Shown one piece after another: positions 2,552-5,245 of a stretch of 8,080 nucleotides of DNA. How positions within the stretch are numbered: the stretch's first letter is position 1; every line of letters starts with the position of its first letter. Origin of the DNA: a virus (lineage: Duplodnaviria; Heunggongvirae; Uroviricota; Caudoviricetes); IMG/VR virus record IMGVR_UViG_2703719366_000016; one strand, 5' to 3'. Made by a program: the position numbers and the translations under genes. The notes under the pieces were generated by a model. That model was not told the DNA's origin and searched no databases. It was given only the letters and a program-made list of their open reading frames with translations.

Positions 2552-2596
2552 GGCTTTTCAGCCACGTAGTCGAGAGTCGACGTTGTTTAAAGAGCC
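2552..2596 (-). promoter_or_regulatory. nutL: boxA (2581-2596) and boxB hairpin (2552-2563)
   Basis: On the transcribed (minus) strand: boxA GGCTCTTTAAACAACG, then 17 nt, then boxB GGCTGAAAAGCC (4-bp stem, GAAA loop). Both share cores with the nutR candidate (GCTCTTT..AACAACG and GCTGAAAAGC), with the same order and similar spacing. Confidence 0.55.
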
Positions 2597-2641
2597 TGCC
2601 AGTCTGTTCCATTTGGCTTCCAGCGTCCTGCTGATGGTTAA

Positions 2642-2670
2642 ATAGTACGATATGTACTTCACTTGGTCAA
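2642..2670 (-). promoter_or_regulatory. pL promoter with overlapping operator oL1
   Basis: Minus strand: -35 TTGACC (plus 2665-2670), 17-bp spacer, -10 TACTAT (plus 2642-2647). The 15-bp dyad AGTACATATCGTACT (plus 2644-2658) overlaps the spacer and -10 and recurs at the same relative position in oR as AGTACATATTGTATT. Confidence 0.5.
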
Positions 2671-2839
2671 TACAATTTGTTCTAAAACGGGGCGTTTTTT
2701 TACAACGCTTTGTATTTAATAGTATTGTTTTTTAGCGTGGGTGTATTGCCTCGGCGATGTAAGGAGAGATCAGAATTGCGTTGTTTAGTGAGTTGTATCT
2801 ATTTATTTTCCAATAAATACAATTGGTTATGTGTTTTTT

Positions 2840-2879
2840 TGGGCGAGAGGAAAAGAAAACCCGGCATGGAGGCCGGGTT
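2840..2879 (-). terminator. Intrinsic terminator downstream of ORF173, insulating pL from upstream leftward transcription
   Basis: Minus strand: hairpin AACCCGGC-ctccat-GCCGGGTT (plus 2858-2879) followed by TTCTTTTCC. Confidence 0.55.
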
Positions 2880-3180
2880 GATGATTAGCGGTGTGGCCTT
2901 GAGCGATAATGCTCACACACATGTTCAAGATTTCCATGCCTTATCCGTTCATAGGCATTCACATGAACTTCTCGATCGAATTGGTCATTCAAATTGTATG
3001 TAGACATCTGTGTTTTCTCATATTGGCGGCAGCCCTACAACCGCTTGAAAAAATGTACCAGACGCGCTAAGGTTACATCGCAAATATTGTGTACCTTAAC
3101 AAGGGCTCCTTTTGGAGGCTCTGGTTAAACAGCATCAATGTCGGACTGGGGAGTTGGACATTGTGCTGAATGCTTTTGCA

Positions 3181-3702
3181 TTATTGAGGCCGAACGTAAA
3201 CCTTCAGAATTGAAGAGATGCGTTCGGCTTCTTCGTTTGTGATATCGTTAGGAATGCCTTTAATCGTTACTGTAACCCCTGATTCAGGTCGAAGAACTAC
3301 TGGAAGATCATAGGTATGAAGTGCATTAGCCTTGCCTTCGACTTTTGTTGGTTCGCCAGTCAAATCTTTTTCCTCACTGGATTCTTTGTCAATCGGAGTG
3401 TATGGGATTTCTTCACCAGACTGGAAAGCTACAAACTTTTTGATTGCACTTTCCATGCGGCTTTTATATGCAGTAATGCTGCTGTCGCTAGGCTTCGGCT
3501 CAGTTGCGTTGATGTATCGCTCGGCAAGCTCATTCACATCAAGCTGAGTAACATCACCCATTTCCTCTTCTTGGACTACCGTTAAGAGGCGAGCGGATGA
3601 GTTTTTTAAATTTCGAGCGGTGGCCTCCTTCATTATGTTCAGCGACATAAGCTCTTCAAGGAAGTCCTTGAATGCCTGCACGCTAACGTTTGACTTTGCC
3701 AT
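3181..3702 (-). CDS. Hypothetical protein ORF173 (acidic, no recognisable domain); candidate lysogeny-expressed accessory gene in the cI-to-pL slot
   Basis: 174-codon ORF with ATG at 3702-3700, a purine-rich AGAGAGAGAG stretch upstream, and stop TAA at 3183-3181. Flanked by terminators and a candidate promoter of its own. No similarity to RexA/RexB or any family I can name. Confidence 0.7.
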   Translation of the reverse strand: MAKSNVSVQAFKDFLEELMSLNIMKEATARNLKNSSARLLTVVQEEEMGDVTQLDVNELAERYINATEPKPSDSSITAYKSRMESAIKKFVAFQSGEEIPYTPIDKESSEEKDLTGEPTKVEGKANALHTYDLPVVLRPESGVTVTIKGIPNDITNEEAERISSILKVYVRPQ

Positions 3703-3734
3703 TTGCTCTCTCTCTAAGTTATTGACTCAGATCG

Positions 3735-3776
3735 AGTTTATCCAGGAATTGATTTGCATGCAAGACTCAAGTCTTG
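3735..3776 (-). promoter_or_regulatory. Candidate sigma70 promoter for ORF173 with overlapping 16-bp palindrome
   Basis: Minus strand: -35 TTGCAT (plus 3758-3763), 17-bp spacer, -10 TAAACT (plus 3735-3740), about 25 nt before the ORF173 ATG. Palindrome CAAGACTCAAGTCTTG (3761-3776) abuts the -35 and could be a regulator binding site. Confidence 0.35.
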
Positions 3777-3804
3777 AGAATTTCCGTTCAAGATCCACTC
3801 TCAA

Positions 3805-3829
3805 TAAAAAAGGCCGCACCTCTGCGACC
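3805..3829 (-). terminator. Intrinsic terminator between cI and ORF173
   Basis: Minus strand: hairpin GGTCGCA-gagg-TGCGGCC (plus 3812-3829, one G-U pair) followed by TTTTTTATT (plus A-run 3805-3811). Confidence 0.5.
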
Positions 3830-4203
3830 TTTCATCTCCTAAATCTCTTTTCTCTTACCTAAAGAAACAGCAGGCTGGGTCAGCCCTAACAACTTCAAGT
3901 GCATCGGTCAGAGAAAGCTCCGTGCTATACAGGTGTTATTTCATATCTTTTTGCATCCAATAAATTTTCCATCTGTCCAGAGAGCGGATGCACTTGATTC
4001 TTGTTGATGGCAGGACGTTTTTTCACCTGCCTCACCCTGCCATACAGGACGCTGCTCACCGATATCTATCGTCCGGTCATTGATGTTATAGACAATATCC
4101 AGATCATTACGGATATACTCAGATGGCCTTATGCTTTCAATGAATAGATGAACTTCTTTTTGACCGCTTGATACTCATGGCCATTAAACTCCATCTATCC
4201 TCT

Positions 4204-4857
4204 TTACCCAAACGTCTCTTCAGGCCATTGGCTGGCGATAACTTTCCCCACAACGGAACAACTCTCATTGCATGGGATCATTGGATATTGCGGGTTTAGT
4301 GGTTGTAGAAACACCTGACCGCTATCCCTGATCAGTTTCTTGAAGGTAAATTCATCACCACCAAGTCTGGCTATGCAGAAATCGCCGGGCTCAACAGCTT
4401 GCTCAGGGTCAACCAGAATTAACATCCCGTCAGGAAAACTAGGTTTGGAACCTGTTGGTGCGGTCATTGAGTTACCTTCAACCTCAAGCCAGAATGCAGA
4501 GTCACTGGCTTTTTTGGTTGTGCTTACCAATCTCTCCGCATCACCTTTGGTAAAGGTTCTGAGTTCTGGAGAGAACATCCCAGCCTGAACATGAGAAAAA
4601 ACAGGGTACTCATATTGTTTTTTAACTGGGGCCGATGAGTATTCGCCAACAGGTGAAAATGTCCCGTCGTGGTTGAATGATATGTTATCAATACCAAGGT
4701 ATTTAAACACCACACCAATATCACTAAGAGATGGATGACGAGATCCGCGCAACCAGTGTCCAATTCCACCCTGCGTCATACCTAGCTCTTCGGCTAACTT
4801 CTCTTGAGTTATGCCGAGCTCTTTCATTCTGGATCTAGCCAGTTCATACCATTTCAT
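4204..4857 (-). CDS. cI: cI-type prophage repressor, chimeric: non-lambda N-terminal HTH domain plus lambda-like C-terminal S24 autocleavage/dimerisation domain
   Basis: C-terminal ~140 aa ([27 protein letters not shown]...[12 protein letters not shown]) is near-identical to lambda CI as I recall it, including the Ala-Gly cleavage site and Ser/Lys dyad context. The N-terminal HTH ([26 protein letters not shown]) differs from lambda. Start chosen at ATG 4857 (SD AAGGA, 7-nt spacer); in-frame alternatives are ATG 4863, ATG 4899 and TTG 4905 (track start). Confidence 0.9.
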
Positions 4858-4872
4858 TTTCATGTCCTTATT

Positions 4873-4947
4873 ATTACGCTCTGTACTGGAACCATCCATG
4901 CACAATGTGTATTTTTACTTGTATTTGAGAAGTACATATTGTATTTT
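4873..4947. promoter_or_regulatory. oR / pR / pRM divergent control region
   Basis: Operator 15-mer AGTACATATTGTATT (4931-4945) is shared with oL. pR candidate: -35 TTGTAT (4919-4924), 17-bp spacer, -10 TATTTT (4942-4947). A weaker operator-like copy lies on the other strand at 4873-4887 (AGTACAGAGCGTAAT), overlapping the cI RBS as OR3 does in lambda. Additional TTGTATT repeats. pRM not pinned down. Confidence 0.5.
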
Positions 4948-4973
4948 TTATTCGTGGTTACTATGGAGGGCAT

Positions 4974-5189
4974 ATGAGCAACCTACGAAAATATCGAGAG
5001 TCACTGAATATCTCTCAAACAACACTTGCTAAGGCAGTTGGATGCACACAGGGAGCTATCGGACATTGGGAATCTGGTCGTCGCTTCCCAGACCTTAAAA
5101 CATGCCGTGCTCTTGTTGCGTGTCTAAACAAGTTAGGCGCAAAAGTAAGTCTTGATGACGTGTTCCCGCCGGAGCACAAAGCCGCTTAA
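4974..5189 (+). CDS. cro: Cro-type HTH regulator (XRE family)
   Basis: 71-aa ORF divergent from cI, with ATG at 4974 and SD GGAGGG upstream. HTH LAKAVGCTQGAIGHWESGRRFP has a recognition helix nearly identical to the cI N-domain ([15 protein letters not shown]), consistent with a shared operator set. Confidence 0.8.
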   Translation: MSNLRKYRESLNISQTTLAKAVGCTQGAIGHWESGRRFPDLKTCRALVACLNKLGAKVSLDDVFPPEHKAA

Positions 5190-5199
5190 TAAGCGGAGC

Positions 5200-5245
5200 C
5201 GCTCTTTGTAACAACGGACATTCGTCCTACGTCGCTGAAAAGCGA
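5200..5245 (+). promoter_or_regulatory. nutR: boxA (5200-5216) and boxB hairpin (5232-5245)
   Basis: boxA CGCTCTTTGTAACAACG (compare lambda CGCTCTTA and rrn boxA GCTCTTTAACAA), then 15 nt, then boxB TCGCTGAAAAGCGA (5-bp stem, GAAA loop). Further hairpin ATGCGTttccACGCAT at 5276-5291 in the tR1 position. Confidence 0.55.

Follow-up and report, generated by a model that had tools for sequence, protein, structure and literature searches.

The window analysed here, the whole stretch of 8,080 bases, is the early regulatory and replication region of a Shiga-toxin (Stx)-type lambdoid prophage, and our subject is its antiterminator gene N together with the two nut sites, nutL and nutR, at which the N protein is expected to act. 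The window starts with an IS3-family insertion sequence (IS) element, a truncated cIII with its thermoregulator RNA, a DUF2528 (ea10/ssb-like) gene, an open reading frame (ORF) of 83 amino acids (aa) and N. These are followed by pL/OL, a 173-aa ORF, cI, OR/pR, cro and cII, and then by a 53-aa ORF, O, a DnaB-like helicase gene and the first bases of an inverted second IS copy. The features of N and the nut sites, with lengths in nucleotides (nt) or base pairs (bp), are as follows.

2180..2452, minus strand: N gene, 90 aa; Pfam PF25694 N_peptide (3.4e-32 over residues 1-90), PHROG 271.
2551-2596, minus strand: nutL, between pL and N.
2583..2596, minus strand: nutL boxA GGCUCUUUAAACAA, rrn-like CUUUA type, kept in 81 related loci.
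2569..2581, minus strand: nutL spacer hairpin GUCGA-CUC-UCGAC, from folding.
2551..2564, minus strand: nutL boxB UGGCU-GAAA-AGCCA, 5-bp stem, U-A closing pair, GNRA tetraloop.
5200-5245, plus strand: nutR, between cro and cII, 11 nt past the cro stop.
5200..5214, plus strand: nutR boxA CGCUCUUUGUAACAA, from sequence, kept in related loci.
5216..5227, plus strand: nutR spacer hairpin GGAC-AUUC-GUCC, identical in the annotated 933W nutR.
5232..5245, plus strand: nutR boxB UCGCU-GAAA-AGCGA, 5-bp stem, U-A closing pair, GNRA tetraloop.

N lies directly downstream of pL and nutL, with a GGAGG Shine-Dalgarno sequence and a start codon about 100 nt past the nutL boxB. The ORF as listed (2180..2524, 114 aa) includes 24 codons upstream of this start, and older records annotate the 114-aa form from an upstream in-frame ATG. 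Since the Pfam alignment begins at residue 1, GGAGG stands five bases upstream and the start is conserved in relatives, the 90-aa form starting at 2452 (MSRKTEFKG...) is likely to be the actual product. The protein is the N of VT2-Sakai; whole-protein homology places it in the P22/H-19B N family, and its C-terminal 24 aa are common to H-19B and P22 N. An N protein with an arginine-rich motif (ARM) had been proposed in the initial annotation, and both are present, the ARM GTAASRRRARRA occupying residues 9-20 of the Pfam-supported N. The motif had been called phi21/P22-style, which is only loosely right: over a 21-residue core its identity is 11/21 to phi21, 9/19 to lambda and 8/21 to both P22 and H-19B, and its true relatives are the short ARMs of the epsilon34/g341c type and others (11-18/21). 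N proteins are intrinsically disordered without RNA. A PDB sequence search with the window N gave no match, and solved peptide complexes were compared via literature and phage records. Pipeline annotation leaves the nut sites unmarked; of 5,426 complete E. coli genomes, 819 carry the N and nutL segment, at 893 places in all, and PGAP enters the gene there as 'hypothetical protein'. No NCBIfam model covers this N type; Pfam PF25694 and PHROG 271 recognise it readily.

Along with this N-family protein go two nut sites in transcript sense, each with boxA, spacer and boxB, as in lambdoid N/nut systems generally. The matched pair with boxA and GAAA-loop boxB had been predicted at these places, and the sequence bears it out: the 20-nt motif CTACGTSGCTGAAAAGCSAG occurs in the window exactly twice, at 2550-2569 on the minus and 5227-5246 on the plus strand, with no other copy, with 0 matches in 200 shuffles and with none expected by chance. 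The two copies are divergent, in the orientation expected for the pL and pR transcripts. The prediction had boxA and boxB right and overlooked the second hairpin that lies in each spacer. Between spacer hairpin and boxB runs the linker UACG at both sites, or CUACG counting the preceding C, and CUACG is invariant over 19 distinct nut sites. From nutL to nutR, one pair of the boxB stem is exchanged in compensatory fashion, G-C for C-G. Both boxA sequences, GGCUCUUUA and CGCUCUUUG, fit the rrn and lambda consensus YGCUCUU(U)A and have the CUUU form, which strengthens the lambda boxA (PMC2724277). The boxB loop has 4 nt, GAAA, and not the 5-nt GNRA-like loop with an extruded base of the lambda/P22 type. 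A pentaloop register for the window boxB was ruled out, since U-G would have to close the loop with a C-C mismatch next to it. Directly 5' of the nutR boxA, a palindrome CCGCUUAAUAAGCGG (5182-5196) overlaps the tandem TAA TAA stops of cro and places a hairpin 5' of boxA; since it is specific to the Cro type of the window (other Cro types end differently), it is probably incidental.

By comparison with phage records the sequence itself is not new. Bases 2150-5350 are 100% identical to the well-known Stx2-converting phages 1717 and Stx2a_WGPS4 and 99.9% identical to phages 2851 and YYZ-2008, Stx1 converting phage, Stx2 II of strain Morioka V526 and the PA phage series. Both nut sites are conserved in about 85 loci.

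The boxB loop follows the type of N. An unbiased, independent IMG/VR scan for the nutR family, allowing any G...A loop of 4-6 nt, returned only GAAA (63), GACAA (49) and GCAA (4); de-duplication left 111 distinct nutR contexts, and in 94 of these the contig also carries N. A scan of genome contigs gave 4 loci only. Among the 94, short-ARM N proteins (Sakai and epsilon34 types) stand with a GAAA or GCAA tetraloop in 53/53 cases, and long-ARM H-19B-type N with GACAA in 41/41. nutR lies some 10-45 nt from cro and 2.7 kb from N, and five Cro clusters (at least 90% identity) contain both combinations: the window's own cluster has 27 tetraloops with a short ARM against 4 pentaloops with a long ARM, and the lambda-type cluster 4 against 17. 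With these clusters mixed and nutR beside cro, the loop is seen to follow N and not the adjacent cro. The loop class of nutL agrees with that of nutR in every lineage. Loci found via Sakai-type N have GAAA in nutL (81) and in nutR (about 77), and the POCJ13/phiSTEC1589 lineage, whose N is 86% identical to that of the window, has GCAA in nutL and GAAA in nutR. Loci found via H-19B-type N have GACAA at both sites; most of those apparently without a GACAA nutL (e.g., L098) have it about 280 nt upstream of N, beyond the 260-nt search range. The more distant lineages, with N identity given relative to the window, are these.

L261: N 69% identical, ARM FKGSSAARRRERRAHMQ, GAAA in nutL and GCAA in nutR.
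L206: N 47% identical, ARM FTGTADSRRREARKHLQ, GCAA at both sites.
epsilon34, g341c and Si3: N 38-54% identical, ARM FNGSAAGRRRERRAALQ, GAAA at both sites.
SPN9CC and Oslo: N about 38-40% identical, long ARM, GUCAA in nutL and GACAA in nutR.
E. albertii: N 44% identical, P22-type ARM, GACAA.

Two of these and a further group have hairpins of unusual format. In SPN9CC (L290) and Oslo (L291), nutL lies about 120-145 nt upstream of N and reads GCUC-C-GUCAA-C-GAGC, with the pentaloop flanked by C and C as in P22 nutR, and nutR reads UCGCU-GACAA-GGCGA with a U-G closing pair; these hairpins indicate that the pentaloop class tolerates non-canonical closing pairs. The N of mEpX2 (L293) and ECP1 (L294), with ARM DDNARNRRRARRQAQRE, is accompanied by boxB CCCGC-CGAAAU-GCGGG, identical at both nut sites, with nutL about 130 nt upstream of N and nutR downstream of cro. 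Here a GAAA core sits between an unpaired C and U, a format without counterpart among the solved complexes. The near-identical N of HK140 is annotated as similar to HK620 N.

Folding and covariation were considered for both hairpins. For the isolated boxB segments, folding gives a tetraloop on a 5-bp stem (-7.1 and -6.5 kcal/mol), and with natural flanks the two-hairpin fold is the minimum free energy (MFE) structure, or at most 0.2 kcal/mol from it, for nutR and related sites. The 45-nt nutL has a folding z-score of -2.9, with 2/200 shuffles folding equally well. A MAFFT alignment of the nut sites displaced the pentaloop rows, and pair tables were therefore computed in register by script. Across the 19 distinct sites no cell is unpaired: in boxB, the outermost pair is U-A, A-U, C-G or G-C, the second is G-C or C-G, and the three loop-proximal pairs (G-C, C-G, U-A) are invariant. 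The spacer hairpin occurs with four unrelated stems (GUCGA, GAUUC(A), GGAC and GGUGA, the fourth type coming from L206), every one of them paired, and in nutL its loop varies (CUC, ACUC, ACAC, AUC, GCAC, AUGAA) while the stem is kept. Anatomy, conservation, the covariation of both hairpins and the association of N type with loop are thus direct observations, and the support that they lend to the predicted structures is comparative, not thermodynamic. Rfam has no nut or boxB family, and its sole strong match in the window is the cIII thermoregulator.

The surrounding control elements supply the transcripts on which N would act and the terminators that it would overcome.

2642..2670, minus strand: pL promoter, TTGACC, 17-nt spacer, TACTAT, from a promoter scan.
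4204..4863, minus strand: cI repressor, helix-turn-helix and S24 peptidase (Pfam), annotated in FM180578.
4974..5189, plus strand: cro, 71 aa, HTH_3 (Pfam), annotated in related records.
5331..5627, plus strand: cII, Pfam Phage_CII 6e-32, the first gene needing pR read-through.
1860..1881, minus strand: terminator-like hairpin of the pL operon, 3' of N, from an intrinsic-terminator scan.
1714..1735, minus strand: terminator-like hairpin of the pL operon, GC-rich stem then UUUUUUA, from a terminator scan.
1276..1295, minus strand: terminator-like hairpin of the pL operon, upstream of cIII, from a terminator scan.
5276..5291, plus strand: hairpin AUGCGU-UUCC-ACGCAU between nutR and cII, identical in 933W.

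The pL transcript is predicted to start near 2635 with ATCAGCAGGACGC..., and the P22 pL region has the same leader start. A 22-nt operator-like inverted repeat is common to pL (2639-2660) and the OR region (4929-4950). The AP005153 record (L001) marks operators and -10/-35 elements here as well; its positions 1993-2020 correspond to window 2642-2669 and are labelled 'putative maintenance promoter for CI' at OL; by position and orientation, reading into nutL and N, this 'maintenance promoter' is pL. The 5276-5291 hairpin is retained in g341c with a compensatory change (AUGCGC...GCGCAU), where the record marks the equivalent as a putative tR, and it is probably part of the tR1 region.

Further features touch on the history of the prophage. 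The IS3-family element (orfA and orfB) extends from 1 to about 1131, with a masked run of the letter N at 283-315, and we take its ends to resemble those of IS629. The last 25 bases of the window (8056-8080) are the reverse complement of the IS right end, so the immunity and replication segment is flanked by inverted IS copies, the second starting 54 nt past the stop of the DnaB-like gene. The lambda cIII thermoregulator RNA is intact at 1201-1259 on the minus strand (Rfam RF01804, 88.5 bits). The cIII ORF (1094-1246, minus strand), whose beginning resembles that of lambda cIII, enters the IS end at about 1131, where the IS replaces the cIII C-terminus, and this copy of the prophage probably has an inactivated or altered cIII. 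The 173-aa ORF (3181-3702, minus strand; PHROG 2602) has no match in Pfam or NCBIfam. Flanked by cI and pL, it occupies the place that rexAB has in lambda, and is followed by a terminator-like hairpin (2879-2858, minus strand); it is also found in Salmonella phage Oslo, beside a different N type.

The element is almost certainly the functional nut pair of this N, and we consider it highly probable that the two sites are the cognate nut sites of the prophage antiterminator and that loop size is part of the specificity code. The pL and pR transcripts would each carry boxA, the spacer hairpin, the CUACG linker and boxB. The short N-terminal ARM helix of the 90-aa N would bind the boxB major groove together with the GNRA-fold tetraloop and the stem top, the loop being a true GAAA tetraloop with no looped-out base. 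NusB/NusE would sit on the rrn-like boxA and NusA on the spacer flanks, which the spacer hairpin probably draws together, thereby shortening the spacer. The C-terminal part of N, common to the H-19B and P22 proteins, would make RNA polymerase termination-resistant, the targets of read-through being tR1 between nutR and cII and, leftward, the hairpins at 1881-1860, 1735-1714 and 1295-1276. In the lambda N elongation complex, the ARM and the NusA KH domains lie on boxB and NusB/NusE on boxA (PMC8632103). Short-ARM N proteins of the Sakai, POCJ13 and epsilon34 types would pair with GNRA tetraloops, and long-ARM H-19B-type and P22-type N with GACAA, whose C is looped out in the P22 complex. Binding, Nus factor use, loop discrimination and read-through are what we infer from the observed anatomy and associations. 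That short-ARM N forms a distinct, orthogonal class of boxB recognition, reading a canonical GNRA tetraloop with no extruded base, is a bolder proposition, for and against which we see an even balance.

Several points weigh against this reading, its loop-size code included. The counts of N type and loop are phylogenetically non-independent, and the independent associations number closer to what five mixed Cro clusters and some six ARM lineages provide. In the literature searched, no binding or antitermination test of the window N type was found. A lambda boxB changed to a GAAA tetraloop reportedly still binds the lambda N peptide, in which case loop size alone may not discriminate strictly. 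Finally, one locus, L051, couples the window N type to a lambda-type nutR. One alternative, which we regard as unlikely, is that the loop difference is neutral: both N classes would use both loops, and the association would reflect shared ancestry of N-nutL-nutR modules. The counts do come from closely related Enterobacteriaceae prophages, L051 does pair this N type with a pentaloop nutR, and the N-boxB literature contains overlapping specificities and, reportedly, the binding of the lambda N peptide to a GAAA variant. Yet nutR, 2.7 kb from N and near cro, follows N in 94/94 contexts, including those in the five Cro clusters, and the nutR sites of 933W and the window are otherwise near-identical, with a single loop base as the main difference segregating with N.

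L051 itself is a 6.8-kb contig (IMGVR_UViG_2531839234_000006; relevant positions about 1086 and 1412-4149). It joins a different cI N-terminal domain, cro, cII and O, all of which we take to be lambda-like, and a lambda-type nutR (GAAAA) to a Sakai-type side with the 173-aa ORF, OL/pL, the tetraloop nutL and N, the junction lying within the C-terminal domain of cI, which the two sides have in common. A lambda cI N-terminal domain would here face Sakai-type OL operators, and because this mismatch would leave pL unrepressed, the contig is probably an assembly chimera or a defective element; it was set aside as evidence of cross-specificity. The alternative is a natural recombinant with mismatched repressor/OL and N/nutR.

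Another possibility, which we hold to be very improbable, is that the functional RNA has boxA paired with the 3' arm of boxB, enclosing the spacer hairpin and acting as a switch. The boxA GCU...UUU is inherently complementary to the boxB AAA...AGC, and thermodynamics also speak here against the two-hairpin fold: with its flanks, the window nutL favours the boxA:boxB pairing by 2.3 kcal/mol (-14.3 vs -12.0 kcal/mol), short constructs of whole nut RNAs give this pairing as the MFE, and most z-scores from folding the nut RNAs do not stand out (-0.96 to -1.67 in 3/4 constructs). However, the switch is not predicted for the flanked nutR, the POCJ13 nutL or the g341c nutR, which has no boxA consensus; covariation backs the boxB stem and not the boxA:boxB pairing; and NusB/NusE would be expected to keep boxA single-stranded (PMC8632103). 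That the hairpins are inherited remnants, with N acting via another site or not at all, is scarcely credible: the tie between N and the hairpins is read from sequence and PGAP calls the protein hypothetical, but both sites are canonical in position and orientation, about 85 loci conserve them and 819 genomes carry N with nutL, and the hairpins covary and track the N type, with no other copy of the motif in the window.

Should the bolder proposition of an orthogonal short-ARM class hold, a one-base insertion or deletion in the loop together with an ARM swap would suffice to switch between Sakai-type and H-19B-type specificity, co-resident lambdoid prophages with different N types could keep their early antitermination circuits separate, and the antitermination complex would assemble without the extruded loop base that lambda and P22 present. 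The N-boxB interaction is a model of peptide-RNA recognition and a widely used tethering tool, and to our knowledge all solved N-boxB complexes have penta- or hexaloops that mimic the GNRA fold with extra bases. A natural class with a true GNRA tetraloop, set apart from the H-19B nutR by one loop base and strictly co-varying with a shorter ARM, makes a clean pair for study, which could reveal stepwise specificity switching and whether a looped-out base is needed for Nus-factor assembly. This N type would control the early genes of many Stx2 and Stx1 prophages in E. coli O157:H7 and relatives. The system is a textbook one, so the gain is incremental. Some of it has been anticipated: UCGCUGAAAAGCGA carries the label 'Putative NutR (similar to NutR Epsilon34)' in the g341c record, and the epsilon34 genome paper of 2008 considered a novel BoxB specificity likely from the divergent N-terminal 27 residues of its N (PMC2629481). 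In the Stx phage records examined, no nut sites are annotated for the window N type. We found no paper describing a tetraloop boxB class, in a search that covered subscription journals thinly, so a prior description is possible.

Among known systems, the Salmonella P22-like phages epsilon34, g341c and Si3 share the defining traits of the window. Their short ARM is identical to the window core in 12/21 positions, and both they and the window combine the pattern ...RRR(E/A)RRA.LQ with a GNRA tetraloop, GAAA, at both nut sites, a class known from sequence only. The g341c nutR hairpin UCGCU-GAAA-AGCGA is identical to the window nutR boxB. Their N differs in its length of 120-121 aa and its H-19B-like central region, their nutL and nutR have no consensus boxA whereas the window has one, and the outer pair of their nutL boxB is C-G where the window has U-A.

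The initial annotation had compared the pair with lambda, P22 and phi21 and suggested that its specificity may differ from all three. Comparative data make this likely, and the loops of the three (GAAAA, GACAA and CUAACC) all differ from GAAA. P22 (PDB 1A4T) belongs to the same N family by C-terminal alignment. Its boxB, read from the phage record as GCGCU-GACAA-AGCGC in nutL and ...C-GACAA-C... in nutR, shares with the window the GCU...AGC stem top and the U-A closing pair, and its loop adopts a GNRA-type fold, as does the GNRA tetraloop of the window. However, the P22 pentaloop has a looped-out C that the peptide contacts, a base that the window loop is without; the ARM is only 8/21 identical, and the P22 nut has no spacer hairpin. 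In descriptions of the P22 complex, the looped-out C contacts His7 and Arg11 (PMC12550061) and an isoleucine (PMC11480772). In an ungapped alignment, the window equivalents of these residues are R16, A20 and S24, and other short ARMs have S, N or A at the isoleucine position, which would fit a loop without a base to contact there.

For lambda, the pentaloop stated in the initial annotation is confirmed, the lambda-type nutR read from L051 being GCCCU-GAAAA-AGGGC. The lambda ARM core S/T-RRR-x-RR-A...Q is likewise found in the window (9/19 identical), and in both cases boxB has a 5-bp stem, a U-A closing pair and a GNRA-type loop fold. In an ungapped alignment, E26 of the window N stands where lambda N has Trp18. 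The lambda GAAAA and GAAGA pentaloops extrude their fourth base, where the window has a tetraloop; the boxA of lambda is CGCUCUUA, and its nut sites have no spacer hairpin. What lambda N recognises is a GNRNA pentaloop in which extrusion of the fourth base leaves a GNRA fold, and it needs the U-A closing pair (PMC12027372); the window keeps this pair and the invariant GCU/AGC stem top. Since lambda N is missing from the tblastn matches to the window N, it would be at best a distant relative.

Of the solved systems, phi21 (PDB 1NYB) comes closest to the window in ARM identity (GTAKSRYKARRAEL vs GTAASRRRARRANL, 11/21), and its boxA and pL leader are similar to those of the window. Its boxB, in contrast, is a 7-bp stem with a CUAACC hexaloop (nutL UCUCAAC-CUAACC-GUUGAGA; phi21 sites read from OL657228), against 5 bp and GAAA, and the window has no hairpin with a CUAACC hexaloop of this type. 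Outside the ARM phi21 N is unlike the window N, and phage 21 is not among the tblastn matches to the latter.

The closest studied system by these comparisons is H-19B/933W, which the initial annotation left out of the systems that it named, and not lambda, P22 or phi21. The 933W record annotates both nutL and nutR, the latter reading CGCUAUUUUCACAAU-GGACAUUCGUCC-UACG-UCGCU-GACAA-AGCGA, and over the roughly 115 nt from the spacer hairpin to the cII ATG the window differs from 933W only in the absence of the loop C and in two substitutions. The N proteins belong to the same family, with the C-terminal 24 aa identical or near-identical and an N-terminal MxRxTxFKG in both. The nut layout of boxA, spacer hairpin, CUACG linker and boxB is shared, and a dyad symmetry between boxA and boxB, as in H-19B, is found at both window sites. 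The spacer hairpin is said, in work by Neely and Friedman from 2000, to be a 'reducer' that shortens the effective spacer, and the same work reportedly found H-19B N to be independent of boxA, NusB and S10. The H-19B nutR is described as a site of two hairpins at which NusA occupies the spacer and N the boxB loop, and H-19B nutR/tR1 has been used as a Rho-dependent terminator (PMC3526286). H-19B-type N, also present in HK97, has 127 aa, is about 40% identical to the window N and has an ARM region about 7 residues longer as well as an extra central segment. Its boxB has a GACAA pentaloop at both sites; in place of this loop and the 127-aa long-ARM protein, the window has GAAA and a 90-aa N. In many H-19B-type copies boxA is degenerate (CGCUAUUUU), in contrast to the two consensus boxA sequences of the window. 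Overall, the layout is that of an ordinary lambdoid N/nut system, and what makes it a variant is one defining detail: its boxB ends in a true GNRA tetraloop, in covariation with a short ARM.

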